From: Dipteris shenzhenensis
Taxonomy: Eukaryota
Length of the DNA: 64,000 bases
Reading direction: 5' to 3' (one strand)
Assembly: GCA_047967505.1 (NCBI GenBank)
Contig: CM106538.1
Shown here: positions 5,271-41,136 of the stretch, one piece after another
Numbering within the stretch: the first letter of the stretch is position 1
How the letters are laid out: the number at the start of each line of letters is the position of its first letter
Position numbers and translations under genes: made by a program
Notes under the pieces: model-generated
Seen by the model: the letters and a program-made list of their open reading frames with translations, nothing else
Database searches by the model: none
Told to the model about the DNA's origin: nothing

Positions 5271-5350
5271 ATAGACAAGTGTATGAGATCTTCCCCATTC
5301 TCACAAAATATGTTGAACACACGCACATATACATGTGTGTGTGTGTGTGT

Positions 5351-6578
5351 TATTAGCCGGAAGACCACAGGCTAGAGGCTAAGCATGGCGACACTCGAGG
5401 GCCATAGAGGAAAGGAGAACGTGAGGGCGAAACGTTATCATGGGAGGGGAAAAGGAATTAGAAGGGGAGGGAATGAAGAGGGAGACTATGACACAAGGGA
5501 AAAGGGAGAGGGGGAAGAGAAGCGTGTACATGATGGGAGAAAGAATATAAAGATGGAGACATCAAGGGAAGAGGACCATGCTTTATTTTGAAAGAAAGGA
5601 AAGGGAGAAATCAAAGTACTAGCTAGGTGGCTTTACAAGAATAAGTGTGTCTCATCAAGGAATAGCCCCCTCCTTTTATAGCCAACAGAGGGGGTCTCTC
5701 CCAATAAATGCATCCTCCCACATGCATGGTGTGTGTGGAAAAGTCTCCCATGTGGGCTAGGCGGTTACGCACTCTCAATAAATACATCCTCCCAATAAAT
5801 GCATCCTCCCACATGTATGGTGTGTGTGGAAAGTCTCCCATATGGGCTAGGCGGTTATACACTCTCAATTGTGTGCGACAACCCTTTGCCTCATTTTTCC
5901 ACATAAATCAAGCCCCATATCTCAAGTCTATGATACTCCCTTAGTCTCTCCCCAATTTTATAATATCTTCAAACCTCTAGGAGACAAGTGGAGCATTGGC
6001 ACAAGGAATCTTGCCACCTCATCCTACTTTCCCCATTATTTAACTTGCTCTCTTGGACCTTCTATACCTCCTCCACACAAGCCTATCCTATATGGAGGGA
6101 ATAACCTAATATAATATCCATCTCCATCTATTTCATATAGGAGACAAGTGGAGCATTGGCACAAGGAATCTTGCCACCTCATCCTACTTTCCCCATTATT
6201 TAACTTGCTCTCTTGGACCTTCTATACCTCCTCCACACAAGCCTATCCTATATGGAGGGAATAACCTAATATAATATCCATCTCCATCTATTTCATATTA
6301 CTTCTCCCATGGACTTTGAGCCATATCTCACTAAATGCAGCCTAGGTGGAGAGATGGCACATGAAGCAGCCATGCCATCTTACATTTTATAATATTACTA
6401 CCATGGATTATGTACATCACACCTTATGGGTCCTCTTACGTGGAAGGGTGGCACATGGTCATGCCCTACCACCTCAACCCTGGGCCCTATGCACACCATA
6501 TTTTATTATACTATTGTCACACAAACAAACACACACACATATTAATGCCTTTTTCCTTAGACAAATTTATCCATAACA
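5351..6578 (-). repeat. 3' LTR of element A
   Basis: On the minus strand starts TGTTATGG after PPT GGGGGAGGGAAT and ends GCTAATA against a (CA)n flank; contains about 90-bp and 160-bp tandem duplications; TATA-like GGCTATAAAAGG near 5672-5684. Confidence 0.88.
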
Positions 6579-6591
6579 ATTCCCTCCCCCA

Positions 6592-7052
6592 AGCTTCGAG
6601 GTGTATCTCCAGCAGGAAGGGCGTGGAGAATGACAGAGAAACGGAGGAGAACAGGCTTAAGCAAATTTTGGGAAGAACAGGAAGAGATGGTGAAGAAGAA
6701 GATGGAGAAGAAGATGATGATGTGGTAGAAATGGGATCAAGGGGGATCAAATAGCTCTGATACCATGTTGGTAAACTGAAAGAAAAGAGTAGAGTGGACA
6801 CAAATTCAGAATACTTATAGAATGAAGAAGAGTGAGGTCCTTACGTAGGCACCTCTTACATGCTCACTGACATCACTGATGACTTCAGAGCTCCACAATC
6901 ATCTCCTCGATCTGCTCCTAGATTCTCTCAATCATCCTATGTGGCTTTCCACCACCTAACTGTGCTTATGGACACCTAACTGTGTCCGCCTTTAGCACTC
7001 ACACATAGAAACCAAGGTGTGCCTGAGGCATACACCTTGAGATATCCCAACA
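6592..7052 (-). mobile_element. Truncated copia-like insertion: 287-bp LTR (6766-7052), tRNA-iMet PBS and start of internal region
   Basis: TGTTG...CAACA termini, adjacent TGGTATCAGAGC; absent from the homologous segment at 27825-27880. Confidence 0.75.
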
Positions 7053-8197
7053 GGTCCATCACGCACAAAGAAGGGCTTGAGATAACGCTTGTTGATCACC
7101 TTCCAGCCATATGGCTCATGCAGCTCGTGAACTTATACAGACCCATTGCTATTTCTTGATGACTTTGCATGGACCGGTACACAGTGGCAGAAACTTCTTA
7201 TCCATTTGGTGGTCCAATCTGTTATCAAAGCATAGCACAACATCCCCCTCAGCAAAGTGTCTTTCCCATCCCTTGCGAATCTTAGCATCAAAGCGAGCCT
7301 TTTGTCGATTCTTTTGAATCTCTGTTTGATGTAGGGCAAGGCGTCGGGTTTCATCTAGCTTCTCAAGTTGCACCAATCTGGCCTCTACATGTTCATCTTC
7401 TCTCATCCTCTGTTCTTGTGCCAATCTCAAGGCCGGAATCTCTATCTCTAGTGGTAAAACTGCCTCAGTTCCATACACCAACTCAAAAGGAGTGTGACCT
7501 GTAGACGTTTTATGAGTAATGTTGTAAGCCCACACGGCTTCAGTGACCTTCTGATCCCACTGGCTCCTGTTTCATGTGGCCATTTTTCCCATGGTTTTAC
7601 AAAGGAGGCCATTGGTCCGCTCCGTTCGACCCATGGATGCTGGATAATAGATGCTACAAGTGCGATGATCAATACCCATGCGATCCATGAGTAACTCCAC
7701 TGATTCATTTAAGAATGGACTCCCATGGTCGGAGACTATTTCCATGGGTATCCCAAACTTGTGCAGATACGTTCAAATATAAAATTTGAAACTGCCTTAC
7801 CATTTGCAGCGGGTAGGGCGATAGCTTCAGCCCACTTAGTGACATACTGAGTAGCTACCAAAAGATACTTCTTTTTACGGGCAGTCATGGGCAAGGGCCC
7901 GACAAAATCTATTCCCCACTTCTGAAACGGATGGATGGACATCACTGGGTGATGTTGCCCAAGATGCAAATCCTTCCTACCAAAGAATTGGCATGGTTCA
8001 CAGGTTTTGCAATACAAACTGACGTCCTTGAACAAGGTCGGCCAATAGTATCCAGCATGTAAAATCTTCTTAGTTGTATAGTCACTGGCATAGTGGCCTC
8101 CACAAAATCCATCATGATAATGCTTCAATACCTTAGCCACTTCATCTGCATCAATGGCCCATCTTAGTACCCCATCCATGCCTTGACGGTACAACAC
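7053..8197 (-). pseudogene. Element A integrase (frameshifted)
   Basis: H..GGH/C..C zinc motif, WGIDFVGPLP, KWAEAIAL, TPFELVYG, GP.KV; no chromodomain. Confidence 0.92.
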
Positions 8198-8252
8198 CCC
8201 ATCAAAGAGGGTGTAGCGCCTACTATCTCTGCGGATCTTCTTTCTCTCATAG

Positions 8253-9758
8253 CTAGTACTTTCTGGAGGAAAGGAGAAAGGCAGTCAGAAACCTGTAGAT
8301 ACCGCCATACCATGGATCCCTCACTTCTATGGCTGCTACAAGGGTTACATCAAGACACTCCTCTAAATCAATCAAAGCATTCTTCAAGTTGGAACGATCC
8401 CCTTTTACAATTTTGAAAGAAAAATCATATTCTTGTAGAATTGCCAACCATTTGGCTAACCGGCCCATGGGATTTGGTGATTGAAGAACCTGCTTTGCAA
8501 GACCTTTGCTAGAGATTATAATTAAGGATTTTCCCGCCACATAATGCTTAAATTTCTCAATGCAGAAAACTAAAGACAAGACATGCTTGTCAGCCTCTGA
8601 GTAGCGTTGTTCGGTGTCGAGCAATTGTCGAGAAGCAAATCGAACGGGATATATGATCCGATCCTCCCCTTGTTCGAAAAGAATACCTGCCAGAGTATGC
8701 TCACCAAACCCAGGATTGATATAGAAAGTCTTTGACCAATCTGGATTACGTAGAATGGGTTTTGAAGCCAGAGCATTCTTGATTTGTGCAAACCCATGAT
8801 CACAATTCTCATCCCAAGAGAAATTAACCCCATCTTTTAATAGCATAGTCATGGGTCGTGTCAAAGCAGCATATTGATCAATGAAGCCGCGATAATATCC
8901 TGCTAGATTGACAAATGAGCGTACCTGACGTTTGGTTGTTGGTAGGGAGAGTTTGAGGATGGCTTCTATCTTCTCGGGGTCAGGCTTGACACCCTCGGAT
9001 GAGACAATATGTCCTAGTAACCTCCCTTGAGTGACTCCAATGGTGCATTTCTCCAGGTTAAGACTGCCATTCGCATCATTGATCCTTTGGAAGGTGAACC
9101 TAACCTTCGTGACGTGCTCCTTACATGACGAGAATATACAAGAATCATCTACAAACGCCTCCAAGAAATCCCCCAAATAAGGAGCAAACACCATCCGCAT
9201 AAATCTTAGAAAGGTAGCAAGAGCATTGGTGAGGCCAAATGGCATTACTTTGAATGCAAATGTCCCCCAGGGTGTGGCAAATGTGGTTTTAAGCACATCT
9301 TCAACAATTGTGATTTGATAAAATCCAGAGTAACCATCACAGAAAGTATACATCTCATGACCACTTATCTTCTCAAGAATGAGGTCTTGAAAGGCAAGAG
9401 GATGATGGTCCCTCTTGGTGGCTGCATTGAGTTTCTTATAGTCCATGCAGACTCGCCACTGGTTGTTTTTCTTTGGGGTAACTACCACTGGTGAAACCCA
9501 TTCAATATTGTGAACCGGAACAATAAACCAAGCTTCTACAAGCTTTTGCAACTCCGAGCGCAAAGCATCGGTCTGTAGGGACCCTAATCTCCGATACTTT
9601 TGCGCCACAGGCTTCGCATCAGGCTTCAGCTCTATCCTGTGCTCTATGGCAGTCACATGGCGAAGGTGGTGGTAGCTAGTTGCAAAGAGGTCAGAGAAAT
9701 CTTTGAACATTTCTAGGAACTCATCTTTCTCACTTCGAGTGAGGTCTGGGAAAAGCAT
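8253..9758 (-). pseudogene. Element A reverse transcriptase plus degenerate RNase H
   Basis: [25 protein letters not shown] region FYINPGF lacks the TDAS catalytic Asp. Confidence 0.93.
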
Positions 9759-9899
9759 AGATTCAAGCTGTTGAGAACTAGTTGTTACCTTTTCTGCGGG
9801 GTCGGAGACACCCCATCATGTAAACTTCCTCCTCTGAGAACTCCTCCGCCCCGCCTAAATCTTCTATTGATTCAGACTTCTATTGATTCAGACACTGAG

Positions 9900-11690
9900 G
9901 ATGAGAGAGTATCACTGTCTTGCTCCTCTTCTTCTTCTGGTTCCATGACACCTGGTTGCACCGGGATCTTCTCCTTAGAAGCACCAAAAGACATGTGTCA
10001 TGTCTTCCAATAGCTGACTGCATCACTCTTTCTCAACCATGGTCTTCCGAATATGACTGGGTAACTCCTACCTGTATCTTCAATGTCCACTACATAGAAA
10101 TTGACGGTGATGGTCAACCCATTGATAGTGATGGACAAATCCTCAATGACTCCCGGGGTGGAGAGTCGTCGACCATCTGCTACCTTGATTCAAGTGGAGG
10201 AATGCCTTGTATATTTCAAATTCAATTTCTTCATAATTCGGGGCACCATGATATTACATGCAGCTCCCCCATCAACACACACAGTTTTAACACAGCAATT
10301 ATCTATGATGACATCAACTGTATGTGGGTGCCGATCAATTTCTTCAGAGATAGAAGAGACCTCTCGTACCTTTCCATTTTTCTTATTCCTCCTTGTTGAG
10401 AGCCCTTACTGCAGCTCACGTCTCACCTTAGGGCTTAATGCTATTAGTTGAGGGAGCGTGATGCTCAAAGAACGATGAGCAAGGTCCTGAACGACCGAAT
10501 AGTCTTCTTGCCCCATCCGATGGGAAAATCCGAGGGCGACCACTTACTCCTGTAGAATCTTTTAGTCTTCTCTGTTGGTGGGTCTGCCATCTCAACCTCT
10601 GAGGGCTCCGAGAAAGACATCTTCTTCCTGGGGCGACCGGTCCACGGTTTGGAGAGGGGTCCGAGGTGGTACGACTTCTTTTCCCAAGGCCAAGGATCTC
10701 TACGTCAGAATCCTCAGTCCCTGATTCACTTAGAAGATTCACCCTTGGAATATTGTGATATTTCGTACGATAACGATCCTTCTGGTGGCACTCGTAGCAT
10801 ACAACATTAGCACGGTCTCTTGGAGGACGGTTGACTTCATTTTTTATGTCCACCATCTCAAGCCGAAGATCATTCAAGGCCTTGGCTAGGTCATTGATTC
10901 CAGGTTCAGTTGCAGGGAGGGCCTCTTTAGCTGGAGGGGCCGAGGGAGTAGACAGGAGGCGAGCTCGTGGGCGAGGCTGGAGAAATCTTCGTGGTGGAGG
11001 GTGATAATATACACCTTGTTGAGGATAAGCATCTAAGGGAGGACCATACATTTGAGGTGGAGGCGGTGGATACATCCCTGATGAGGGGTGGGGGTATGCC
11101 CCTGAGTTAGACCCCCTAGGTTGTTCTTGCAAGAATTGAGAGGGTTGCGGAAGGACAATCGTCTTCTTTGAAGCGGGGTCAGACTGAACTTTATCAAACT
11201 TTTGAGCAATCTCATGTGCTAGCACCATAGTTTCTGGATTCTCCCATTTAAGCTTAAGGCGAAATTCATCACTTGCTCCTGCAAGAAGGTAGCGCAGCAC
11301 ATGCTGAGTCATTCCAGCTCGAAATCCGGCATTGTCCTCTTGTGTGGCAATTAAACGGTCTAGGACCACGGCCGCTCGATCCACATATCGACGCACCGTT
11401 TCATCTTCTGACCGCTTCAAGTTTGCCACCTGCACGTACACATTCTCTGGCTCCTCTTCTTTACCGAAATACTCAATCATCGCTGCTGTCAACCTTGGCC
11501 AGCTTTGGCGAACATCTTCGGTCTGCTTCTCATACCACACTTGAGCCAAACTCTCTAGCAATGTGGGAAGAACCAACAGTCATCTGTCTTCGGTATGAAA
11601 GTTGAGAGAAACACAACGGCGCTTGAAGACCAGAAGATACTCATTTGAATGTTCTTCCACCCGTCCACAAAACACGAGAATGTCAGCCAT
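9900..11690 (-). pseudogene. Element A gag and aspartic protease (frameshifted)
   Basis: LAQVWYE gag motif, CYECHQKD knuckle, VCVDGGAACNIM protease active site, LGRPW-like motif. Confidence 0.88.
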
Positions 11691-12259: not shown

Positions 12260-12632
12260 CTTCACGTGCCAAGAAGTCAGCAACTAGATTTCGAGCTCAA
12301 GGGATATGCTGAATTTTTACCTATTCAAATTGATTGCAAAGTTCCAATGCTTGTTGATGTCGAGGAACCAAGCCTTTGCTCCGCACCTTCCATCTTCTCC
12401 TAACTTGTTCACACACTAGTTGAGAATCTCCTTGCACCTCAAGTTGCTTGACGTGATGTTCTTGTGCCTTTTGTAGCCCAAAAATGAGCGCCGAGTACTG
12501 AGCTTGATTACAAGTACTTGCAGGTGCAAACTTGCTATAACAATACTCCTCACCACTCGGTGAAGTGAGCTTTACACTCACGTCAGCAGCCTTAGTCAAA
12601 GGTTTGTAAGCTCCATCAAATTGAAGGATTCA
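12260..12632 (-). pseudogene. Additional cellular/archaeal-type RNase HI domain upstream of gag in element A
   Basis: LQFDGA, TCNQAQYSALIFGLQKA, LEVQGDSQLVCEQV...WKV, HIP...NLVADFLA. Confidence 0.88.
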
Positions 12633-14083
12633 AGATGTCATCACACCAAGACTAAAATTCGGACATCCTAAGTTTCTCGGTAGTCCAAGATAGGTAGAAG
12701 GAGAGGGTGGGGAGAATTCAATACTTGAGCCAAATGTTCAGCACCGAATAAACTTGCAATTCTTTGTTGATAGTTTATCTTCAGACCAAAAAGAATTACA
12801 ACTTGAAACTCGAAATGAGGCAGAAAAGGTTGATTGGGTACAAATGGATTCCTTGGTCGAAACATTACCAACCATAGCTGAGGCTTAGAAATCTTTGTAG
12901 TGAGATTGAGAATAAACCATTCAAGACGAGCTTATCTTCAGGAATTAACAAGCAGATGCGCCAAATCTCCCTCCAAGCTTGGGGAGCATCCCACCCTTCG
13001 ATGAAAGACACCCTTTTAATTACCTCCAAAGCAGCAAGTAGCTCAATCACCGCACAATGAGTGGAATTAAAATCAAAGTTCTCCCAGCGAATCAATAGTT
13101 CTTCACCTTGAACCAACCATGATTATCATCACACCCGTCATCTCCTTGAACAATGCACTAGACAATCAGCCGTTGAAGATCGACATGAAGATCAAGAAAG
13201 AGATCTCGCCAATTGTTAGCCGTAATGAGCGGAGGACCAGGCACCAAATCCTTAAACTCGTCGAGAAGTTACTAAATATCCACTCTCCTCTTGTGGCGTG
13301 CGTCGTGTGCGTTCGTGAAGTGGACTTGAAAAATTTCCGAATCGACGATCTAGCACGAGATGTGAATAGAGCACATGAAATGAAGTACTTTTACTTTTTA
13401 CATCAAGAGTAAACTCCCCACGGTTAGAGAGTTACAGTTCCCGAGATTTCATATAAATAAAAATCATTACATTTTCATCACTTCCAACTTGTTGGCCCAA
13501 TGATAAGTCTCCCTTTTATGAAGGGGGAGGTCTTGGGTTCAAATCCTATTCTTTAATAAAAAGAGAGGAGAGGAGAGGAGAAGGAGAAGAGAAAGAGAAG
13601 GAGAAGAAGAACAAGGAGAGAAGAGTGAGGAGCGCAGAATCTGCTGTTACAGTTTTGCAAAAACTCAGAAAAACTGTCCGCGACCAGAAGACGCAGGAGC
13701 CCAGAAAACTGTCGCGCGGGTGAACGAACTAGACGCGCGAAGCGAGAAAACTGTCCGCGATCAGAAGAAGCAGGAGCCTTGAAAACTGTCGCGCGGGTGA
13801 ACACAGTAGACGAGCGAATCGAATGCACGCGTAAGAACTCAAAAGGAGCACAGATGTTACAATTATGCAGATGCGACCGGTACAAGCAGAAGATTTGCCA
13901 ACCAGAATACACGTAGGAACCGTGAGCAGAAATCAGGCAGACTGAAAGTGCAGAAGCGGAGAGGTTTTGCAGCCGTAGGGACAGGGAAGGTACACAGTTT
14001 GGAGATACAAAAGTAAAGAACTGTGCACAGAAGAGACTGCAGAGCCGCACCTAGTTGTAGGAGTAGCAGGTTTTACACAACTA

Positions 14084-14116
14084 GCCGTGGAGATTTCGAT
14101 CTCAGCAGCCACACCA
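14084..14116 (-). other. PBS of element A, complementary to tRNA-His 3' end (bipartite)
   Basis: TGGTGTGGCTGCTG(A)GAT then TCTCCACGGC, 4 nt inside the LTR; compared with plant tRNA-His(GUG) from memory. Confidence 0.75.
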
Positions 14117-14120
14117 TTTC

Positions 14121-15055
14121 TATTAGCTGAAAAAGAAATCAGGACCAAAGACTAGAGGCTAAGCATGGCGACGCTCGAGGGCCATATAGGATAGGAGAAC
14201 GTGAGGGCGAAACGTTATCATCGGAGGAAAAAGGAATTAGAAGGAAAGGGAATGAAGAGGGAGACTATGACACAAGGGAAAAGAGAGAGGGGGAAGAGAA
14301 GCGTGTACATGATGGGAGAAAGAATGTAAAGATGGAGACATCAAGGGAAGAGGACCATGCTTTATTTTGAAAGGAAGGGAAGAGAGAAATCAAAGTACTA
14401 GCTAGGTGGCTTTACAAGAATGAGCGTGTCTCATCAAGAAATAGCCCCCTCCTTTTATAGCCAAGAGAGGGGCTCTCTCCCAATAAATGCATCCTCCCAC
14501 ATGTATGGTGTGTGTGGAAAAGTCTCCCATGTGGGCTAGGCAGTTACGCACTCTCAATTGTGTGCGACAACCCTTTGCCTCATTTTTCCACATAAATCAA
14601 GCCCCATATCTCAAGTCTATGATACTCCCTTGGTCTCTCCCTAATTTTATAATACATTCAAACCTCTAGGAGGACAACTGGAGGATTGGCACAAGGAATC
14701 TTGCCACCTCATCCTACTTTCCCCATTATTTAACTTGCTCTCTTGGACCTTCTATACCTCCCCCACATGAGCCTATACTATATGGAGGGAATAACCCAAT
14801 TTAATATCCATCTCCACCCATTTTATATTACTTCTCCCATGGACTTTGAGACATATCTCACTAAATGCAGCCTAGGTGGAGGGGTGGCACATGGAGAAGC
14901 CATGCTACCTTATATTTTATAATATTACTACCATGCATTATGTACATCACACCTTATGGGTCCTCTTACGTAAAAGGGTGGAACATGGTCATGTCACCTC
15001 AACTCTGGGCCCTGTACACACCATATTTTATTATGCTATTGCCACATACAAACAC
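14121..15055 (-). repeat. 5' LTR of element A, major part (remainder 27775-27824 beyond inserted B)
   Basis: Homologous to 5351-6535; breaks in the (CA)n tract and resumes at 27775 as ACACACACATATTAAT...CCATAACA. Confidence 0.88.
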
Positions 15056-16037
15056 TGTTAAGCATAAAATTGTCTAGAAAAGGCATTAATATGTGTGTGT
15101 GTTTGTATGTGTGGCAATAGTATAATAAATTATGGTGTGCATAGGGCCCAGGGTCGAAGTGGCAGGGCATGACTATGTGCCACCCTTCCACGTAAGAGGA
15201 CCCATAAGGTGTGATGTACATAATCCATGGTAGTAATATTACAAAATATAAGGTGGCATGGCTCCTCGATGTGCCATCCCTCCACCTAGGCTACATTTAG
15301 TGAGATATGGCCCAAAGTCTATGGGAAAAGTAATATAAAATAGGTGGAGATAGATATTATATTGGGTTATTCCCTCCATATAGGATAGGCCCATGTGGGG
15401 TATAGAAGGCCCAAGAGAGCAAGTTAAATAATGGGAAAAGTAGAATGAGATGGCAAGATTCCTTGTGACAACCCTCCACTTGTCCTCCTAGAGCTTTTAA
15501 CATATTATAAATTTGGGAAGAGACCAAGGGAGTATCATAGACTTGAGATATGGGACTTGATTTATGTGGAAAAATGAGGCAAAGGGTTGTCGCATACAAT
15601 TGAGAGTGCGTAACCGCCTAGCCTACATGGGAGACTTTTTCACACACACCATGCATGTGGGAGGATGCATTTATTGGGAGAGACCTCCTCTCTTGGCTAT
15701 AAAACGAGGGGGCTATTCCTTGATGGGACACGCTTTTTCTTGTAAAGCCACCTAGCTAGTACTTTGATTTCTCCCTTCCCTTCCTTTCAAAATAAAGCAT
15801 AGTACTCTTCCCTTGATGTCTCCATCTTTACATTCCCCGTCCCATCATGTACATGCTTCTCTTCCCCCTCTCCCTTTCCCCTTGTGTCATAGTCTCCCTC
15901 TTCATTCCCTCCCCTTCTAATTCCTTTTTCCCTCCCATGATAACGTTTCACCCTCATGTTCTCCTTTCCTCTATTGCCCCCGAGCGTCGCCATGCTTAGC
16001 CTCTAGCCTCTCGTCCTGATTTCTTTTCCGGCTAATA
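15056..16037 (+). repeat. 5' LTR of element B
   Basis: Reverse complement of the A LTR; starts TGTTAAGC, ends GCTAATA followed by GAAA and TGGTGTG PBS. Confidence 0.88.
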
Positions 16038-17419
16038 GAAATGGTGTGACTGCTAGGATTGAAATCTCCACGGCTAGTAGTGTAAAACCTGTTACTCCTA
16101 CGACTGGGTGCGGCTCTGCAGTCTCTTCCGTGCACAATTCTCTACTTTTTCACCTCCAAACTGTGTACCTTCCCTTTTCCTACGGCTGCAAAACCTCCCT
16201 GCTTCTGCACTTTCAATCTGTCTGCTTTCTGCTCACGGTTCCTACATGTATTCTGACCGGCAAATCTTCTGCTCGTACCGATCGCATCTGCAGAACTCTA
16301 ACATCTGTGCTCCTTCTGAGTTTCTGCGTGCGCATTCGATTCGCGTGTCTACTGTGTTCACCCATGCGACAGTTTTCTGAGCTCTTACGTCTTTTGATCG
16401 CGGACAATTTTTCTGAGTTTCTGCAAGACTGTAACAGTAGATCTCGCGCCCCTCCCTCTCTTCTCTTCTTCTTCTCCTTCTCTTTCTCTTCTCCTTCTCC
16501 TCTCCTCTCCTCTCCTCTCTTTTTATTAAAGAGTAAGATTGAACCCAAGACCTCCCCCTTCACAAAAGGGAGACTTATCATTGGGCCAACAAGTTGGAAG
16601 CGATGAAAATGTAATGATTTTTGTTTATATATTGAAATCTCCGGAACTGTAACTCTCTAACCGTGGGGAGTTTACTCTTGCTGTAAAAAGCAAAAGTACT
16701 CCATTTCATATGCTCTATTCACATCTCGTGCTAGACCGCCGATTCGAAACTTTTTCAAGTCCACTTCACGGACGCATGCCACATGAGGAGAGTGGATATT
16801 TATGTCACTTCTCGACGAGTTTAAGGATTTGGTGCCTGGTCCTCCACTCATTACGGCTACCAATTAGGGAGATCTCTTTCTTGATCTTCACGTCGACTTT
16901 CACAGCTAATTGTCCAGTGCATTGTTCAAGGAGACGACGGGTGGGATGATAGACCGTGGCTGGTTCAAGGTGAAGAACTATTGATTCACTGGGAGAACTT
17001 TGATTTTAATTCTACTCATTGTGTAGTGATCGAGCCACTTGCTGCTTCGAAGGTAATTAAAAGGATGTCCTTCATCGAAGGGTGGGATGCTCCCCAAGCT
17101 TGGAGGAAGATTTGGCGCATCTGCTTGTTAATTCCTGTGGATAAGCTCGTCTTGAATGGTTTATTGTCAGGCCTCGGCTATGGTTGATAACGTTTCGACC
17201 AAGGAATCCATTTGTACCTAATCAACCTTTTGTGCCTCATTTCGAATTTCAAGTTGTAATTCTTTTTTGTCTAAAGATAAACTATCAACAAATGATTGCA
17301 AGTTTATTTTGTGCTGAACATTTGGCTCAAGTGTTTAATTCTCCCCACCCTCTCCTTCTACTTATCTTGGACTACCAAGAAACTTGGGATGTCCGAATTC
17401 TAGTCTTGGTGTGATGATA

Positions 17420-17800
17420 TCTTGGATCCTTCAATTTGATCGAGCTTACAAACCTTCGACCAAGGCTCGTTGCGTGAGTGTGAAGCTCACTTCACCGAGT
17501 GGTGAGGAGTATTGTTATAGAAAGTCTGCACCTACAAGTACTTGCAATCAAGCTCAGTACTCGACGCTCATTTTTGGGCTACAAAAGACACAAGAACATC
17601 ACGTCAAGCAACTTGAAGTGCAAGCAGATTCTCAACTAGTGTGTGAACAAGTTAGTGGAAGGTGGAAGGTGCGGAGCAAAGGCTTGGTTCCACAACATCA
17701 ACAAGCATTGAAACTTTGCAACCAATTTGAAGAGGTAAAACTTCAGCATATCCCTCGAGCTCGAAATCTAGTTGCTGATTTCTTGACATATGAAGCTTGT
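17420..17800 (+). pseudogene. Additional RNase HI domain upstream of gag in element B
   Basis: WILQFDRA, TCNQAQYSTLIFGL, QADSQLVCEQVSGRWKV, HIPRARNLVADFL within ORF 17384-17905. Confidence 0.9.
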
Positions 17801-18381
17801 ACTTCAATCACGCATGACGCAAGTGGAAGCACCACCCCAACAAAGCTGCAAGCAACGAAGGAGGGTGATCATTTGCAAGGAATGCAAAGATTGTGGTCAT
17901 CATGAAACTAAGTGTTGAGCATACTTGATACGAGTTACCGACTTCGGAAGATCATCAGAAAGGTCCTCAAGGACATTGCTCAAAAGAAGGATACTAGACC
18001 GCACATCCCTTGAAGAAATAGCATGGCGACTACAAGAACTGGAAGAAGCTGAAGGTGATGTGCAAGCTCTCCAACTGTTCACATTTGTCATGGCATTCTT
18101 GTTTGCCTTGATGAACCACCTCATGCAGCGCCGTGTCTCTAACCCTCGCTTGTAAAGATGGATGTGATATCATGAGGGTTGGTCCTTTTAAGATTGTCTA
18201 TGTACTATTCTATGCTGAAGATTCTTCCCGTGTAGTATTTCGCAATACACCAGTCGGACCTACCCTGCCTATGTGTGCTTTGTAGATGTATCTTCACCCG
18301 ATTTTCAGTTCAAGCTTCCTCTTTCTATTGTTTGTTCATAGATAAGCCTCGTCTTGCCTCTCTCTTTTCCATCTTTCAAGC

Positions 18382-19456
18382 ATGGCTGATATTCCCGTGT
18401 TTTGTGGACAGGTGGAAGAAAATCCAAATGAGTATCTTCTGGCCTTTAAGCGCCGTTGTGTTTCTCTCAACTTTCTTACTGAAGACAGATGGCTGTTGGT
18501 TCTTCCCACATTTCTAGAAGGTTTGGCTCAAGTGTGGTATGAGAAGCAAGCCGAAGACGTTCGCCAAAGCTGACCAAGGTTGACAGCAGCGATGATTGAG
18601 TATTTCGGCAAAGAAGAGGAGCCGAAGAATGTGTACCTGCAGGTGGCAAACTTGAAGCAGTCAGAAGGTGAGACGGCGCGTCGATATGTGGATCGAGCGA
18701 CCGTGCTCTTGGACCGTTTGATTACCACGCAGAAGCACAATGCCGGATTTCGAGCTGAAATGACTCAGCATGTGTTGAGCTACCGTGTAGCAGGAGCAAG
18801 TGATGAATTCCGCCTCAAGCTTAAATGGGAGAATCCAGAAACTATGGTGCTAGCACATGAGATTGCTCAAAAGTTTGATAAAGTTCAGTCTGACCCCGCT
18901 TCAAAGAAGACGATTGTCCCTCCGCAACCCCCTCAATTACTGCAACAACAATCTGCGGGGTCTAACTCAGGGGCATACCCCCACCCCTCATCAGGGATGT
19001 ATCCACCACCTCCACCTCAAATATATGGTCCTCCCTTAGATGCTTACCCTCAACAAGGTGTATATTCTCACCCTGCCTCGACGATTTTCCCAGCCTCGCC
19101 CACGAGCCCCCCTCCTTTCTACTCGCTCGGCCCCTCCAACTAAAGAGGCTCTCCCTGCAACAGAACCTGGAATCAATGACCCAAGGCCCTAAATGATCTT
19201 CGGCTTGAGATGGTGGGCATCAGAAATCAAGCCAACCGCCCTTCAAGAGACCGTGCTAATGTTGTATGCTACGAGTGCCACCAGAAGGATCATTATCGCA
19301 CGGAATGTCGCAATATTCTAAAAGTGAATCTTCTAAGTGAATCAAACACTGAGGATTCTGACGTAGAGATCCCTGATCTTGGGAAAAGAAGTCGTACCAC
19401 CTCGGACCCCTCTCCAAACCGTGGACCGGGCCGCCCAAGGAAGATGTCCTTAGAGC
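18382..19456 (+). pseudogene. Element B gag (stop and frameshift), interrupted by element C
   Basis: Highly similar to A gag; CYECHQKDHYRTEC knuckle. Confidence 0.9.
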
Positions 19457-20039
19457 TGACACATCCCAGCACTCCTGAAACCTCTGATCTGCAAAACAAA
19501 CACACACCACGTGAGAACTGAGTAGGCTGCTCACCACCCAACCATGACATCTACGGGATGTGATCCCGAATCAGGAGATGTCCCCTCCGAGCCACGAGCT
19601 GAGCTACTGGCACGAACTCCCAATCAGATCCAAACCAGCCTGGTGTCCCATACCACCAGGTGGCACTGTGAAGCCCTGGATCTGCCACTGGGCCTTGGGC
19701 TACGCTAAGATGCAGGCGCGCGTCCGCGACTCAATCTAGGAACAAACCTGGCACCCGGAAACGAAACTTGCTCCCAACTGCACACTGAGAACTGAACCCC
19801 CTGGGCCCCTTTTATAGACTCGGGCCCCGAGCGCCAAAAATAGCGAAGACCTATAAATAGTTCGTACCCTTGCCACTCAACCCGAGAATCAAGCCTGCCT
19901 AGCTCTAAGCCTCCCCAAGCTACCTGAGCTAGTCATGTGTACCTAGCACACGTCAGATACCAATCCGTGTCCGTGCACATGACATACTCCCCTTCCTCTA
20001 AGAACTCACTCCTGAGTTCGCTAAAAAACCCGGGAATGT

Positions 20040-23000
20040 TCTTTGGAGGTTTTGTAATGTCTTCCATGTTGCATCCTCCTCAACACGATCCTTCCACTTG
20101 ATCTTGTATTCCGTGATAGATCGATTGCGAATCTGTCTGTCACGAAATTCAAGAATACTCAGGTTCGTGTGGAATAAAAGTCAAATCTGTAACTTTTATT
20201 ATCTCGTGAGGAGAAACAAGTTGATCATCCGCACCCAAGACTTCTTTCAGTCTACTGACATGAAAGACTGGATGTACTTTAACATCAGAAGGCAATTCTA
20301 GTCGATATGCAACTGGTCCAATTCTTTTAACGACCTTGAAAGGACCACAGTATCTGGGGGATAATTTCGGAACCAAACCAGTACTTAGGCTCTTGGATTC
20401 CTTAGGAATTCGTAAATATACCATCGTTCCTTCAGAGAACTCTCTTGGTGAACGATGTCTATTAGCATAAAATCTGTCTCGATCTTGGGCACTTCTAATA
20501 GACTCCTTGGCAAACTGCAACATTTCCTGCATGTCTAGCAAGAAGTTCTTAGCAGCATCATTTTGAATTCCTTTGAACCCAACCATAACTGGTGACTTAG
20601 GTTGAAACCCGTACATAAGCATAAAAGGACTATAACCAGTACTAGAATGCTTTGCACTGTTGTAAGCAAATTCTATCATAGGGAGATAATCTTCCCATGA
20701 AGACTGTCTCATAGATACATATGCCCGAAGCATGTCTTCAACCAACTGGTTAACCTTCTCTGTACTGCCATCGGATTGTGCATGATCTGAGGAACTCATA
20801 CTTAGAGTAGTTTCTAACTTCTCAAAAACAAGTGTCCAAAAATTACTTGTAAACTTTGAGTCCCTGTCACTAACTATGTTAGATGGCAAACCATACGGCT
20901 TAAACAAGTGGTCCACAAACTCGTGAGCCAGCTGAACAACTGAAATAGTTGTTCCAGTAGGTAAGAATCTAGCCATTTTTGTCAAACGGTCGACTATGAC
21001 CCAAATGGAGTCATGACCCTTGCGCGTTCGAGGCAAACCAGTAATAAAATCCATGGAAATACTTTCCCATTTATTACCTGGAATCTGTAATGGCTGTAAT
21101 AAACCCGCGCTTCTAAGGCGTTCTGCCTTAGTAACCTGACAAACTCGGCAACCTACTACATAGTTCTCAATAAATACACGCATCTTTGGCCAATAGAAGG
21201 TATGCTTCACAAGAGACAGAGTCCTATGTATACCTGGATGTCCAGCACTAGGAGCATCATGACACTCCCAGAGAATCTTGGATTTAAGGTCCGAAACATC
21301 TGGCACACAAATCTTTTTATTCCGGAACAGCAAGCCGTTCCTAATCATCCACTGACCTCCCGCCGCCTGTATCGTAGGTGGCACAATCCCTGAGTCCTGG
21401 TCAACCATGGAGCTCCCATCCTGGACTCTCTGCCAATAAGAATTGAAATGACTATCAGTTGCGTATAGCCCTCTCAAGGATTGAAATAGGTCTGAGGATA
21501 TTTCCGTAAATGACAGAGCATTTACAAACTTAACTCGACTTAAGGCATCCGCCACACTATTCAACGAACCCTTACGATAACGTATTTCAAAATCAAAATC
21601 TTGCATTAATTATGCCCATCGAGCTTTCCATCCCCTCAATTCAGATCCATCACACACATACTTAATTGACTGAAGATCAGTCAATACAAGGAACTTTGAA
21701 CCATACAAGTAGTGTCTCCAAACCTTAAGAGCATACACTACAGCATAAAGTTCCTTCTCGAGTGTGGGCCAACGATATTGAGTGTCGTCTAGCTTCTTAC
21801 TCTCGAAAGCTACAGGTCTGCCTTCTTGGAATAGAGCTACCCCAATCGCATAATCACTCGCATCGGCCTCTAAAACATAAGGCCGGGTAGGATCAGGTAA
21901 TGCAAGAACGGGTGCTTCCTTAATAGAAAACTTCAAGGTTTCAAAAGCCTTGTTCATTGCATCATTCCAAGAGATCGGCTGGCTAGACCTGCGTCCACGA
22001 CCTTTCAATATATTTGTCAATGGTGCCGTGATATGTGAATAATCACGCACAGACTTCCGTAGAAATACCGTAAATCCTAGAAAAGAACGAAGTTGTTTCA
22101 CAGTCTGAGGGATAGGCCATTCTAAAACCTTCTGGATACGATCCAGATCAATGCTAATACCTTCAGAAGAAATCTTGTGTCCTAAGTAAATGATCTCCTT
22201 CATAAAGAAGTCACATTTACTCATCTTGGCATAGAGCTTATGCTGTCTTAGAATAACTAAGACAATCCGCAGGTGTCCTATGTGATGCTCAAGTGTTCTG
22301 CTATATACCAAGATGTCATCTAAGAACACTACAACAAATTTGCCCAGAAAATCCCTGAACAAATCGTTCAACATCTGCTGAAAAGTAGCAGGAGCATTGG
22401 TCAAACCAAAAGGTAATACAAGAAACTCGTAATGACCATACCTAGTTCGGAATGCGGTTCTATCTATGTGTTTAGCATAGATACGGATTTGGTGATAACC
22501 CGTATGCAAATCAATCTTAGTGAAATACTTCGCTCCGGCCAAACGGTCTATCAGATCATCGGAACGCGGTAGAGGGTATCGATTCTTAATTGTCACTTTA
22601 TTTAATCGTTTATAATCTATACACATTCTCCAGGTAGAATCTTTCTTCTTTCTTAAGAGGACAGGTGCACCCCAAGGTGATTTACTTGGGTGTATATAGC
22701 CCATATTCAGGTAATCCTGAAGCTGTAAAGCTAACTCATCCTCCTCTACCTGGCTCATCGTATAAGGTGGTACACTAATAGGTTGAGCCCCTGGGACTAA
22801 ATCTATGCGATGATCTACTGCCCGTTTTGGAGGTAAACCTTCCGGCAGTTGAGCAGGAAATACATCCTTAAAACTATCTAACAACATTCTCAATTCACGG
22901 TGTTCAAACACACTTAAATCATTCTTGTTAATTACAGAAACAACAACAACTCTATTCCGATCAACAAGTCTACATGCTCCAGGTGCATAACATAACACGT

Positions 23001-24380
23001 AAGAACCCCTGTGTAGGCTTGAATCCGGATAGGAAGCGCTTCAACCTTGCGACCCCAAAACTGCTTCCCAGCTGGAAGCTGCACCTCATAGGTGTGGTCG
23101 CTAGGTACTGTGGACAGCCCCATCTTCTGCACAAATTTGTAATTAACAAAGTTGTGAGAGCTGCCCGGATCAAAGAGAATGTGAACCTATTGATCCCTAG
23201 CTTCTCCATAAACTCGGAAAAGATCATGGGAACCAAACAACGAAGTATTGAAAGTACAATTACAAGAGAGTGGGCAGGTAATGACATTTACAGAAATACC
23301 TGTCATCGAGACTTGGTTCGCTCCCTTGGCTGTGGTACGTGGACCCGCCTGGAGCTTCGATCCAAGCACTAACTTTTGATTCTTGCGCTTTGGACACTCA
23401 TTCTTGCTGTGGCCCCGCTCCTCGCAATAGAAGCAACGTCCTTCTTTCTTAAGCCTCAAAGTACGAAGGAAACGGGCTTTACCATTCTTAGCCTGAGTCA
23501 AGTGTTTCTTGGAGGCGTTGTCCGTAGACTTCGTCTCCCCAGTACTAGTCGTAGGCTGAAAGAACTTGCGTTTGTTCTTTCCACTCGTGTCGAAAACTGT
23601 AGTTGCTTTAGCACCGGCCATGGTATCATCATAAATGCGCGCATAATTCATGGCCTCTTGCAACGTTGTGCATTTGTTGTTCTTTATTTGCAACTTGTAT
23701 GAATCTGGCAAACCATCCACGAAGAAACCTAACAAGGTCACTGGATCCATCTTTGTGGCCCTGCTCTGCAGATCCCGAAATCTTTGAAGATAAACTTCAA
23801 AGGACAAGTTTAGCTTTGACATATCGAGGGCTTTAAGCTTGCCAATGATATCATAATTGTCCTCCTTCTTCAGGAACTCCTTCCTGAAGATCCCTTCGAA
23901 ATCTGTCCATGTATCCGGCTTAGGCTGGAGTTCCTTCCACCATAGCAACGCTTCACCTGACATGGACCCGGCTGCAAGCTGGATTTTATTCTCATCTGGG
24001 TATGGGTGGAACTGAAAGTGTACCTGCCACTTGTGTAACCAAGTATCAACTACCTCCTTCGTTCGAGACTTTTGATCTCCCGGAAAAGGGTCTAGAGTTA
24101 TATTCGGACCTAGCATTGAAGCCATGGCATCCACATGCGTGAGTGCCTGCACAGTGCTAGCCAGAAGAGTGAGAGTCGCCTGAATCCCTTGGAGTTGCTG
24201 TGTCAACCCCGTTTGATTTGCATTAACCTGCTCGAATTTTCCATCCAGAGCAATGGTGAATTCATTGAAGGCCTTTTTCGTAATCAGGTCATCATAAAGA
24301 CCCTGATCCTCCTCTCCCACAGGAGTGTAATCCAAATCCTGCTCTCCCATGGTGAACTCGGGATTTGCAGAGTCAGACAT
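20040..24380 (-). pseudogene. Element C gag-PR-RT-RH-IN-chromodomain (a few stops and frameshifts)
   Basis: [63 protein letters not shown]. Confidence 0.94.
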
Positions 24381-24589
24381 AACTGAAATCTGATTTGAAT
24401 ATAAACTAAGAGAAATAACTGACTGAATCGAAGCGCAAAGGAGAATGGAATAGAGGAAAACCGTCCCAAGAGATGCTGACGGAAGGAGATGCTGAAAACT
24501 GGCGAACCCGGAGGCGCAACAATCCCGGATTCTGGCTGAAGTCAATGCTGGATGCAGCGTACGGAATCTTGCAACGATCCGGTATCCTG

Positions 24590-24770
24590 CTGACCGTACA
24601 GGTGACACAGCAGTACGGACGGGTGACGTGGCTGTACGGCAGCTGACGCAGTCCGTACGACAGCTGACGCAGGCCGTACAACAGCCGACGCAGGCTGTAC
24701 AACGACTGACGCTGGCCGTACAGTGGCTGACGCAGGCCGTACGACGGCTGATGACGCAGGTACGGATGGC
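24590..24770. repeat. About 21-bp tandem repeat array in the 5' leader of C
   Basis: Repeated (G)CCGTACRRCAGCTGACGCAG-like units. Confidence 0.85.
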
Positions 24771-25826
24771 TGGCGCAAGTGAGGGATGTTTGCAAAGGCT
24801 ATGGCTGGTGGTTGGAGCCCTGTCCTACTATATAGGGAACAGGGCAGCCTAATTAGGAAGCCCTGCTTCCAAAAAAGGCCCAGCCTCCCAGCTTTGGAGG
24901 GTGGTGCTTTATCGAAAAAAGCAACACACCTCCCAGGGGGTGGCCGCACCCTACTCCTGCACCTTGCGCCTCTCCCTACCCTGCCGAAATCCATACCAGC
25001 CATGGCGTCCAATCTCCGCCTCCCCCGCAGCCCTTGTCAGTCCCTTCGCCTCTCTTTCCTCCTTCTCTGCTCTCTCTCTGCTTCCTACATCCTTCTCTCT
25101 CAGCCCCCTTCAGGAAGTTCGAAATTCTCTCCTTCTTTCTCCTACCTTTTTCCAACATCCTGCCCACCCCTTCTAACCCAAGAACCCAGCAGAATTCTCA
25201 ACAGCAAATTTCGAATTTTAGGGCATACCTGGAGAAAGAATTCGTCAAAAATTCTCGCATCAGAAATTCCTACCTCAGGAGCTGGCTCTGATACCAACTG
25301 ACACGTCCCAGCACTCCTGAAACCTCTGATCTGCAAAACAAACACACACCACGTGAGAACTGAGCAGGCTTCTCACCACCCAACCATGACATCTACGGGA
25401 TGTGATCCCGAATCAGGAGATGTCCCCTCCGAGCCACGAGCTGAGCTACTGGCACGAACTCCCAATCAGATCCAAACCAGCCTGGTGTCCCATACCACCA
25501 GGTGGCGCTGTGAAGCCCTGGATCTGCCACTGGGCCTTGGGCTACGCTAAGATGCAGGCGTGCGTCCGCGATTCAATCTAGGAACAGACTTGGCACCTAG
25601 GAACGAAACTTGATCCCAACTGCACACTGAGAACTGAACCCCCTGGGCCCCTTTTATAGACTCGGGCCCCGAGCGCCAAAAATAGCGAAGACCTATAAAT
25701 AGTTCGTACCCTTGCCACTCAACCCGAGAATCAAGCCTGCCTAGCTCTAAGCCTCCCCAAGCTACCTGAGCTAGTCCTGTGTACCTAGTACACGTCAGAT
25801 ACCAATCCGTGTCCGTGCACATGACA

Positions 25827-27392
25827 AAAGTCCTCAGATGCTGAGATGGCAGACCCACCAACAGAGAAGACTAAAAGATCCCGCAGGAGCAAGTGGTCGC
25901 CCTCGAATTTTTCCATCGGCTCGGGGCAAGAAGACTATTCGGTCGTTCAAGACCTTGCTCATCGTTCTTTGAGCATCACGCTCTCTCAACTAATAGCATT
26001 AAGCCCTAAGGTGAGACGTGAGCTACAACAAGGGCTCTCAACAAGAAGACTATTCGGTCGTTCAGGACCTTGCTCATCGTTCTTTGAGCATCACGCTCCC
26101 TCAACTAATAGCATTAAGCCCTAAGGTGAGACGTGAGCTACAGCAAGGGCCCTCAACAAGGAGGAACAAGAAAAAGGAAAAGGTAAGAGAGGTATCTTCT
26201 ATCTCTGAAGAAATTCATCGGCACCCACATACAGTCGATGTCATCATAGATAATTGCCGTGTCAAAAATGTGTGTGTTGATGGGGGAGCTGCATGTAATA
26301 TCATGGTGCCCCGAATCATGAAGAAATTGAATTTGAAATGTACAAGGCGTTCCTCCACTCGAATCAAGGTAGCAGAGATGGTCGACGACTCGCCACCCTG
26401 GGAGTCATTGAGGATTTGCCAATCACTGTCAATGGGTTGACCACCACCGTCAATTTCTATGTAGTGGACATTGAAGATATAGGCAGGAGTTACCCAGCCA
26501 TACTCGGGAGACCATGGTTGAGAAAGAGTGATGCAGTCAGCTATTGGAAGACAGGACACATGTCTTTTCGTGCTTCTAGGGAGAAGATCCCGATGCAACC
26601 AGGTACCACGGAACCAGAAGAAGAAGAGGAGCAAGACAGTGATACTCTCTCATCCTCGATGTCTGAATCAATGGAAGAATCAAATGGGGGGGGAGTTCTC
26701 AGAGAAGGAAGTTTACATGATGAGGGTGTCTTCGACCCCGCCACCTGCAGAAAAGGTAACAGCTAGTCCTCAACAGCTTGAATCTATGCTTTTCCAAGAC
26801 CTCACTCCAAGTGAGAAAGATGAGTTCCTAGAAATGTTCAAAGATTTCCCTGACCTTTTCGCAACTAGCTACCGCCACCTTCGCCATTTGAGGGCGTCAA
26901 GCCTGACCCCGAGAAGGTAGAAGCTATCCTCAAGCTCTCCCAAATAATAACTCAACATCAGGTACGCTCATTTGTCAATCTAGCAAGATACTATCGCCGC
27001 TTCATTGATCAATATGCTGCTTTGAGAAGACCCATGACTATGCTATTAAAAGATGCGGTTGATTTCTCTTGGGATGAGGATTGTGATCATGGGTTTCCAC
27101 AAATCAAGAATGCTCTGGCTTCAGAACCCATTCTACGCAATCCAGATTGGTCAAAGACTTTCTATATCAATCCTGGGTTTGAAGAGCACACTCTGGCAGG
27201 TATTCTTCTCTAGCAAGGGGAGGATTGGTTCATGTATCCCGTTCGATTTGCTTCTCGACAATTACTCGACACTGAGCGACACTATTCAGAGACTGATAAG
27301 CATGACTTGTCTTTGGTGTTTTGCATTAAGAAATTTAGGCATTATGTGGCTGGAAAGTCCTTAATTATACTCACTAGCACTGGTCTTGCAAA
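25827..27392 (+). pseudogene. Element B protease, RT ends (core deleted near 26888) and degenerate RH
   Basis: VCVDGGAACNIM, LGRPWL; HLRH joined directly to EGVKPDPEK; DWSKTFYINPGF; about 115-bp tandem duplication at 25929-26160. Confidence 0.88.
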
Positions 27393-27774
27393 GCACTCTC
27401 AATTGTGTGCGACAACCCTTTGCCTCATTTTTCCACATAAATCAAGCCCCGTATCTCAAGTCTAAGATACTCCCTTGATCTCTTCCCAATTTTATAATAC
27501 GTTCAAACCTCTAGGAGGACAAGTGGAGGGATGGCACAAGGAATCTTGCCACCTCATCCTACTTTCCCATTATTTAACTTGCTCTCTTGGGCCTTCTATA
27601 CCCCACATGGCTATCTTGCTCTTCATTCCCTCCCCTTCTAATTCCCTCCCCTTCTAATTCCTTTTTCCCTCTCATGATAACGTTTCACCCTCATGTTCTC
27701 CTTTCCTCTATTGCCTCCGAGCGTCGCCATGCTTAGCCTCTAGCCTCTGGTCCTGATTTCTTTTCCGGCTAATA
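27393..27774. repeat. Rearranged 3' LTR of B: inverted LTR piece (27393-27610) plus U5 end (about 27618-27774)
   Basis: First part matches the A LTR orientation; second part matches 15898-16037. Confidence 0.8.
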
Positions 27775-27824
27775 ACACACACACATATTAATCTCTTTTT
27801 CCTTATACAAATTTATCCATAACA

Positions 27825-28145
27825 ATTTCCCCTCCCAGGCAGGGAATGCACAGCATTTCCATGCATGGGTCCATCACGCACAAAGAAGGGCTTGAGATAA
27901 CGCTTGTTTATCACCTTCCTACCATATGACTCATGCAACTCCTGAACTTGTACAGACCCATTGCTACGTTCCTTGATGACTTTGTATGGACCGGTCCACA
28001 GTGGCAGAAACTTCTTATCCATTTGGCGGTCCAATCTGTTATCAAAGCATAGCACAACATCCCCCTCAGCAAAGTGGCTTTCTCATCCCTTGCGAATCTT
28101 AGCATCAAAGCGGATCTTTTGTCGATTATTTTGAATCTCTGTTTA
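27825..28145 (-). mobile_element. PPT and integrase C-terminus of a third, truncated A-family copy sharing A's LTR
   Basis: Homologous to 7053-7330; LCFDNRLDRQMDKKFLPLWTGPYKV; PPT GGGAGGGGAAAT abuts the LTR. Confidence 0.88.
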
Positions 28146-28239
28146 ATGTAGAGCAGTGTGTGGGGGGGGGGATGTGCTCATCCCATTTTGGGATAGTGAC
28201 TCTGTAATATAAAGCAACAAAAAATTTTCACACAAAAAA

Positions 28240-36560: not shown

Positions 36561-36949
36561 TGTTCCACAATACATGCTTGTCTAGTAGCACAACACTTAG
36601 GAACTGTTGTCTGGTAGCGCAGCATTGTGCTATAGTAGTTTGCGAGCTAAATGTCTGGTATGTTGTAATTATCGCCATATTTCATGGCAGTGACCAATGT
36701 ATGGTCAATAAGTGAGTTAGGGGCACTTTTTCCCTCATTTCCTAACCACAGTTAGGATCCCTAACTACGGTTAGTGGATAGGATAAGGTTTTGTCAATTA
36801 GGCAAAACCTTCTCCTTTTGTATGTTCTCTCTCTCTCTTATTCAGTACGTTTTGTGTGGCTTGCTCTCCATCTCTCGTTTTCCTTCATTTGGTATCAGAG
36901 CCCAGCTTCTGGACCTGCCTCTGCTTATGTCCATCTCCTACTCCAGCCA

Positions 36950-40792: not shown

Positions 40793-41136
40793 GAGCAGAG
40801 AGCAAGGTCAACCCGCTCTGATACCAAATGTGAGGAGATGGTGAGTGAGAGAGAGTAAGAGAGAGTGAGAGCTGGAAGCTGGGAAGCTGAAAGCTGAGTT
40901 GCAATAGAAGAGTGTGAAAGAGTACAACTCAATGAGAGAGAGATAAGGTTTTGTCCTAGTGACAAAACCTTAGTAGTCACTGACCATAATTAGTGAACTA
41001 ACTGCGGTTAGGGGGAAAAACCTCTTAAAGAGGGAAAAGTGCATCTAACTAGCTTATTATATTACATTGGTCACTGCTGAATTATATCTATAATTCTAAC
41101 ACCCCCCTGCAGTGCCAATGTCATGTACAAGGCTGA

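Follow-up and report, generated by a model that had tools for sequence, protein, structure and literature searches.

A two-block complement of tRNA-His at the primer-binding site of a Ty3/gypsy retrotransposon, probably a relic of primer read-through

Since the choice of primer and the contacts between primer and template decide whether a long terminal repeat (LTR) element can replicate, and also expose the element to 3' fragments of transfer RNA (tRNA), a primer-binding site that appears to continue beyond its usual length raises the question of where the additional complementarity came from and whether the element uses it. Template-tRNA contacts outside that site are, to our knowledge, understood for yeast Ty1 and Ty3 and for a few retroviruses only. 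Here we considered this question for a Ty3/gypsy family with two old copies, A and B, about 10% divergent, in a stretch of 64,000 nucleotides (nt) of Dipteris shenzhenensis DNA (contig CM106538.1, assembly GCA_047967505.1; hereafter the window). An earlier note on this window, made from the letters alone, had proposed a bipartite primer-binding site for tRNA-His just inside the 5' LTR of each copy. Both 33-nt sequences quoted there were recovered letter for letter at that location, TGGTGTGGCTGCTGAGATCGAAATCTCCACGGC in copy A (14084-14116, minus strand) and TGGTGTGACTGCTAGGATTGAAATCTCCACGGC in copy B (16042-16074, plus strand). We regard the first 18 nt as the primer-binding site proper, and consider it somewhat probable (roughly 55%) that the exact 10-nt block in the extension is a templated relic of plus-strand synthesis that read through the primer from A58 to about G37, with the extension shortened later.

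To establish the match, we aligned copies A and B with tRNA-His, extended by CCA and taken as its reverse complement, using plant nuclear genes from metagenome contigs as the reference, which may not be those of the host. These genes were collected with a scan pattern taken from the window sequence only, consisting of the 10-mer, a gap of 5-30 nt, and the 11 nt preceding CCA. The pattern demands both flanks, and thus shows that plant tRNA-His genes carry the 10-mer rather than what share of them is without it. At least 122 loci matched. Among the matches listed, to which all counts in the remainder of this paragraph refer, one identical 15-nt gap was present in 115 of 137 pattern matches, and ARAGORN called 115 tRNA-His(GTG) genes in 101 of the 122 loci (in a separate run, tRNA-His was called in 47 of the first 60). 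Two 72-nt variants that are one D-loop position apart dominate this collection with 58 and 48 copies, and the last 36 nt are identical in 112 of the 115 genes. Some of the genes adjoin tRNA-Asp or an intron-containing tRNA-Tyr, as in nuclear plant tRNA genes. The tRNA-His sequence that the earlier note had given agrees with these real genes. ARAGORN called no tRNA gene within the window itself.

Both primer sites begin with TGG, the complement of CCA, 4 nt past the LTR end GGCTAATA. In copy A the alignment to tRNA-His(GTG) plus CCA runs for 14 exact nt from TGG and reaches 17 of 18 in all, while copy B matches at 16 of 18. By the thresholds given in passages of Neumann 2019, namely a perfect match of at least 12 nt to the tRNA 3' end or at most two differences, copy A qualifies with its 14 perfect nt and copy B with its two differences in 18. 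The three mismatches in this head are all transitions, each private to one copy and at different positions, so that the common ancestor of A and B matched tRNA-His at 18 of 18. Because the site opens with the complement of the post-transcriptionally added CCA, it is the mature tRNA that is matched and not a gene fragment. The contiguous match of 18 nt equals the canonical retroviral length, its last base lying just before A58, and the 18-nt site has only two occurrences in the 64 kb even when three mismatches are allowed. The alignment identifies the opening 18 nt as a genuine primer site for the mature, nuclear tRNA-His(GUG), and the assignment to this tRNA instead of tRNA-iMet, as originally proposed, holds. 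A literature search with the 14-mer sequence returned unrelated papers only, and a scan of viral contigs with the 18-mer gave 8 loci, all in unrelated coding or repeat contexts.

Beyond the 18-mer, one base of the tRNA complement is lacking in both copies. This 1-nt gap has no unique placement, since the two copies show a C/T difference at a CpG there. Two to three bases of the 5-nt spacer that follows match the T-loop, after which 6-7 tRNA bases are replaced by one or two A in both copies. This main gap takes in the 5' strand of the T-stem together with one base on either side, the final one of the variable loop and the first one of the T-loop. The match then resumes with the exact 10-mer TCTCCACGGC. 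This block complements linear positions 37-46 (G37, C38, the 3' strand of the anticodon stem and three bases of the variable loop), is colinear with the tRNA, and ends at G37. The 10-nt match to the variable loop and anticodon stem, and the skipping of the T-stem 5' strand between the blocks, were thus seen in each copy as the earlier note had described them.

The 10-mer occurs twice in the 64 kb against 0.06 occurrences expected, and none of 100 shuffles contained it two or more times; the 15-mer around it has only two more look-alikes in the window at three mismatches. When random 15-nt tails of leader composition were generated (400,000 trials), a match of 10 nt to the remaining tRNA complement arose with a frequency of 1.8e-4, from which we conclude that the extra block is tRNA-derived and did not arise by chance. 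That the whole site is a chance resemblance, or a fragment of an antisense tRNA-His pseudogene or short interspersed nuclear element (SINE) unrelated to priming, is scarcely credible and was rejected: the 1.8e-4 comes on top of the 18-nt match, the site begins with a CCA complement that genes do not encode, and both copies have it at the same 4-nt distance from the LTR end, with no other candidate primer site there.

Co-folding of tRNA-His with the leader, suggested earlier as a check, gave a two-part duplex in RNAduplex with the T-stem 5' strand looped out. The predicted duplex of the 33-mer consists of two helices separated by a bulge of 7 nt in the tRNA and 2 nt in the template. For copy A the predicted energy changes from -30.9 kcal/mol for the 18-mer alone to -51.3 kcal/mol for the 33-mer, and for copy B from -24.0 to -42.6 kcal/mol. 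In each copy, no more than 4 of 1000 shuffles of the 15-nt tail with matched composition were equally stable. [quoted passage not shown] No other complementarity to tRNA-His of at least 7 nt beyond chance was found from -250 to +450 (2 in copy A and 1 in copy B, against 1.8-1.9 in shuffles). When the sequences were folded on themselves, the uninterrupted complement of tRNA positions 37-76 gave -14.8 kcal/mol, and the 33-mers of A and B gave -8.3 and -3.0 kcal/mol, respectively.

Conservation could be compared between two copies only. Public sequencing runs contributed little: two gave a match, with shares of 0.09 and 0.06, and their short contigs hardly covered the primer site. Copies A and B differ at 5 of the 60 nt before the site, at 3 of 18 in the 18-mer, and at 1 of 15 in the tail. 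The 10-mer has 0 differences in 10 against 12 in the next 120 nt, which at 10% divergence corresponds to P~0.35 for these two copies. Together with 7 neighbouring bases it is identical in A and B despite the family divergence of about 10%. The earlier note had interpreted the second block as an extended contact between template and tRNA; the two-block complement on which that interpretation was built is real, but this comparison lends no support to a selected second contact.

How, then, would such a block have arisen? An exact 10-mer cannot come from drift, and reverse transcriptase (RT) must therefore have copied it from the tRNA. Plus-strand strong-stop synthesis would be the only replication step in which the primer is copied into plus-sense DNA, and this synthesis would normally halt after 18 nt at the methylated A58. 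Passages of Fukuda 2021 (PMC8599865) indeed describe m1A58 as the plus-strand strong stop and report that without it synthesis goes on into the tRNA. Reverse transcriptases also show a non-negligible read-through of m1A (passages of PMC4787781), and both m1A58 and m1G37 are widespread in eukaryotic tRNAs according to parts of PMC10275265. On the reading that we favour, plus-strand synthesis would once, in an ancestor of the family, have passed A58 and copied the primer to about G37. The over-copied product, the complement of positions 57 to about 37, would have been fixed directly behind the 18-mer, and the extension would later have been shortened by the 1-nt gap and the 6-7-nt gap. Since the contiguous match ends at 18 nt and the far end lies at G37, both endpoints fit read-through. 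No further contacts were seen from -250 to +450, and in the two copies the 10-mer is kept no measurably better than the sequence around it, which gives no sign of a designed multi-contact site. If the extension is a relic only, it is a rare natural record of plus-strand read-through from A58 to about position 37, with an inherited product.

Several points weigh against this origin as a full account. The 6-7-nt gap coincides almost exactly with the T-stem 5' strand, which is not predicted by simple read-through. This loss would be predicted by a selected contact in two blocks, or by avoidance of an RNA hairpin resembling the T arm, and it constitutes the strongest argument that selection shaped the extension later. 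In addition, the real tail beats 996 of the 1000 shuffles in duplex stability, which fits a functional tail too; a stable tail duplex is at the same time expected from any tRNA-derived tail. The 10-mer, although it contains a CpG, is intact in both copies against three private changes in the 18-mer, which weakly points to constraint. The 1-nt gap may be just a TT-to-T contraction or reflect the CpG transition ambiguity. The far endpoint also depends on m1G37 being the next hard block to RT in tRNA-His, which we presume to be the case. Finally, the support comes from two copies of the family and from tRNA-His genes of metagenome contigs.

From the sequence, a functional extended contact is plausible, and the extension may aid primer annealing or rescue over-copied strong-stop DNA, but we consider an actual function in primer binding or strand transfer possible rather than probable. 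[quoted passage not shown] A more specific version, which we find slightly more doubtful still, is that the 10-mer and a 3-nt T-loop match were kept by selection as a second helix that stabilises or specifies annealing or packaging, as do the Ty1 boxes. The predicted two-helix duplex gains some 19-20 kcal/mol over the 18-mer, the T-stem gap leaves the template complementary to one strand only of each tRNA stem, and the identity of the 10-mer and its 7 neighbours in otherwise divergent copies would fit such retention. Extended contacts beyond a short primer site are also documented for Ty1, Ty3, Rous sarcoma virus (RSV) and human immunodeficiency virus (HIV) in passages of PMC3592414. Yet the absence of differences in the 10-mer is unremarkable at P~0.35 in two copies, no other contacts were seen from -250 to +450, and the 33-mer of copy A folds into a small hairpin of its own. 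An exact 10-mer would still require a templated origin.

Alternatively, the 10-mer could act during strand transfer: over-copied strong-stop DNA that stops near G37 would pair by its last 10 nt with the minus-strand complement of the 10-mer and so complete the transfer, as a non-contiguous counterpart of the second stop of lentiviruses. The match does end at position 37, where we presume a hard stop. In lentiviruses, complementarity to tRNA-Lys3 extends beyond 18 nt to one nt before position 54, and passages of Fukuda 2021 (PMC8599865) describe this as a back-up stop allowing transfer. The complement is interrupted here, unlike in lentiviruses, and progeny should often regain the full tRNA complement, which neither copy has; we therefore consider this role improbable. 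Still less probable is that the primer is a tRNA-His 3' half cut in the anticodon loop, with which the template would pair over nearly the full length minus one strand of the T-hairpin. The complementarity ends at 37/38, where 3' halves start, and priming by half-molecule tRNAs has been described in plant copia lineages (passages of Neumann 2019). Those known cases, however, use the 3' end of the 5' half and not the CCA end, whereas the present site complements the CCA end of the full tRNA, and an RT stop accounts equally well for the same endpoint. The read-through relic thus remains the reading that we prefer, with selection as a possible later influence on its shape.

We also compared the site with systems in which template and primer tRNA are known to make additional contacts. 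In Ty1, the primer-binding site and boxes 0, 1 and 2.1 complement the primer tRNA (Friant et al., as cited in passages of PMC3592414), so that in Ty1, as in the element described here, the RNA carries short blocks downstream of its primer site that complement internal parts of the tRNA. The Ty1 site is 10 nt long and its boxes, for which a function has been shown, are directed to the T and D arms of tRNA-iMet. The present element has an 18-nt site and a single exact 10-nt block (37-46) that is predicted to pair with the variable loop of tRNA-His and the 3' strand of its anticodon stem. In lentiviruses too, the sequence just downstream of the primer site complements the primer tRNA and is linked to plus-strand read-through (passages of PMC8599865). 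There the extension is contiguous and 4 nt long, whereas the present one is broken by gaps of 1 nt and 6-7 nt and reaches to position 37. Contiguous complementarity to one nt before position 54 is not found here; a 1-nt gap follows the 18-mer in both copies. HIV-1 provides another example of additional template-tRNA contacts outside the primer site, in its primer activation signal (PAS) with the anti-PAS and in its A-rich loop. The PAS and A-rich motifs belong to U5, upstream of the primer site, and their partner in the tRNA is the T arm or the anticodon loop; the present element shows no such upstream complementarity in the region searched from -250. In a literature search we came across no plant element for which a contact beyond the primer site, or a split extension of that site colinear with the tRNA, has been described, although the large supplementary tables of Neumann 2019, which lay outside the search, could hold similar cases. 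If the 10-mer is selected, the element would offer a simple, sequence-defined system for how far a plant retrotransposon unfolds its primer tRNA.

The coding organisation is informative with respect to the lineage of the element. In copy A, Pfam matches on the minus strand follow the Ty3/gypsy order gag-(protease)-RT-RNase H-integrase, and in both copies an additional RNase H of the RVT_3 type is located between the primer site and gag. In the 'pre-capsid' structure described for Tat elements, as far as given in passages of PMC13468544, the extra RNase H is an open reading frame (ORF) of its own in the 5' untranslated region. The predicted layout of our element, with an RVT_3-type RNase H ahead of gag and the gypsy domain order, matches such a Tat-cluster Ty3/gypsy retrotransposon. 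The main text of that paper has neither 'PBS' nor 'tRNA', and primer use is therefore undescribed there. The position before gag is none of the three positions for an extra RNase H that are listed in passages of Neumann 2019. A protein look-up with the RT ORF returned only generic gypsy RT clusters from many phyla and so gave no clue to the lineage.

With regard to the primer, the earlier note had called the choice rare. Use of tRNA-His is indeed uncommon, but there is a precedent in plants, as supplementary file 3 of Neumann 2019 (PMC6317226) lists tRNA-His for 15% of 39 TatIII elements. The main text of the same source states that non-chromovirus gypsy elements do not use tRNA-Met, and tRNA-His priming has been reported for animal gypsy and Helenus elements as well (passages of PMC10886601). 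TatIII elements share the primer with the present one and, to judge by its layout, probably the Tat lineage, but they carry the extra RNase H after the integrase and have a mean length of 14.7 kb (passages of PMC6317226), whereas here it precedes gag and the element, not counting the nested copy, measures about 9.7 kb. In the five minus-strand ORFs of at least 55 amino acids downstream of the integrase core of copy A, neither an RVT_3 nor an RNase H match was detected. Because the extra RNase H is not behind the integrase, the element does not belong to TatIII. The TatIII passages and table of Neumann 2019 make no mention of an extended or split complement.

Table 1. Features of copies A and B and of the nested element; positions are those of the 64,000-nt window.
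Feature	Position	Strand	Remarks
Copy A primer-binding site, 18 nt	14099..14116	-	17/18 match; complements tRNA-His(GTG) 3' end including CCA
Copy A 15-nt extension	14084..14098	-	5-nt spacer plus exact 10-mer at 14084-14093 (complements tRNA-His 37-46)
Copy A 4-nt spacer	14117..14120	-	GAAA on element strand, between LTR end and primer site
Copy A 5' LTR	14121..15055	-	cut 46 nt from its start by copy B insertion
Copy A 5' LTR, missing 46-nt start	27779-27824
Copy A 3' LTR	5351..6578	-	internal tandem duplications
Copy A polypurine tract	6580-6590	-	just upstream of 3' LTR
Copy A extra RNase H	12321..12629	-	between primer site and gag; Pfam RVT_3, E 9.6e-15
Copy A gag-like ORF	10428..11579	-	Retrotrans_gag E 1e-4, below Pfam cut-off
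Copy A RT, RNase H, integrase	7572..9815	-	Ty3/gypsy order, split over several frames; Pfam (RT/RNase H 8253-9815, integrase 7572-8284)
Copy B 5' LTR	15056..16037	+	starts TGTTAAG, ends GGCTAATA
Copy B 4-nt spacer	16038..16041	+	GAAA
Copy B primer-binding site for tRNA-His, 18 nt	16042..16059	+	16/18 match
Copy B 15-nt extension	16060..16074	+	exact 10-mer at 16065-16074
Copy B extra RNase H ORF	17339..17905	+	upstream of gag; RVT_3, E 2.4e-18
Copy B remnant of 3' LTR end	27630..27774	+	ends GGCTAATA
Candidate 4-bp target duplication	15052-15055 and 27775-27778		ACAC
Unrelated gypsy element nested in copy B	19445..25828	-	TGGTATCAGAGC-type primer site at 25285-25296

The two copies are arranged head to head (Table 1), forming a palindrome of about 1.3 kb per arm at 13747-16411 that is centred at 15055/15056 and extends into the element bodies. 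This layout results from the inverted insertion of copy B 46 nt inside the 5' LTR of copy A. In an empty-site check, deletion of copy B and one ACAC rebuilt the LTR without a gap at the junction. The result fits an LTR of the form TG...TA ending GGCTAATA, a 4-bp target duplication and the 4-nt GAAA spacer; the surrounding (CA)n tract leaves a 5-bp target duplication as an alternative. A fold-back duplication was also considered as the cause of the head-to-head layout and rejected, since the far end of copy B adjoins the missing 46 nt of the copy A LTR and the 4-bp duplication at the two ends matches. Copy B is deleted after 27395, and the remnant of its 3' LTR ends at 27774. No Rfam model reached its gathering score in the window; the weak microRNA-like Rfam matches at the centre of the inverted LTR junction (15055/15056) are regarded as a palindrome artefact.

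A third, truncated copy C is present on the minus strand at 27779-28155, where a polypurine tract and an integrase remnant lie directly upstream of a shared LTR. Copies C and A form a tandem of the type LTR-body-LTR-body-LTR, with one LTR common to both. CA/TG repeats follow all three LTR 3' ends seen (5335-5350, 27775-27785, and the contig end from a public run at 16035), which may reflect a preference for insertion into microsatellites or an ambiguous LTR end (GGCTAATA versus ...ATAACA). The 3' LTR of copy A is about 300 bp longer than the 5' LTRs as a result of a tandem duplication of about 160 bp at 5983-6442. The unrelated gypsy element inside copy B has Ty3 capsid, zinc knuckle, RT/RNase H, integrase and SH3_Tf2-1 domains, and its two LTRs, at 19456 and 25298, share 97% identity.

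According to the earlier note, every other primer-binding site in the window was of the tRNA-iMet type. Eight other primer-like sites are indeed of a type different from the tRNA-His site, all resembling TGGTATCAGAGC with 0-1 mismatch; the motif itself we take to be a tRNA-iMet primer site. Compared with the tRNA-iMet sequence, none of the eight continues beyond about 17 nt. Six of them belong to other LTR elements, at 36890, 38966, 40815, 46510, 60215 and 63022. The sites at 40815 and 46510 are preceded by identical sequence, and identity is 96-99% in several LTR pairs. In the 3' region of copy A, a segment of about 430 bp (6590-7050) that is absent from copy C holds ...CA followed by TGGTATCAGAGC. 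The motif in this segment lies at 6754-6765 on the minus strand and resembles the junction between LTR end and primer site of another element.

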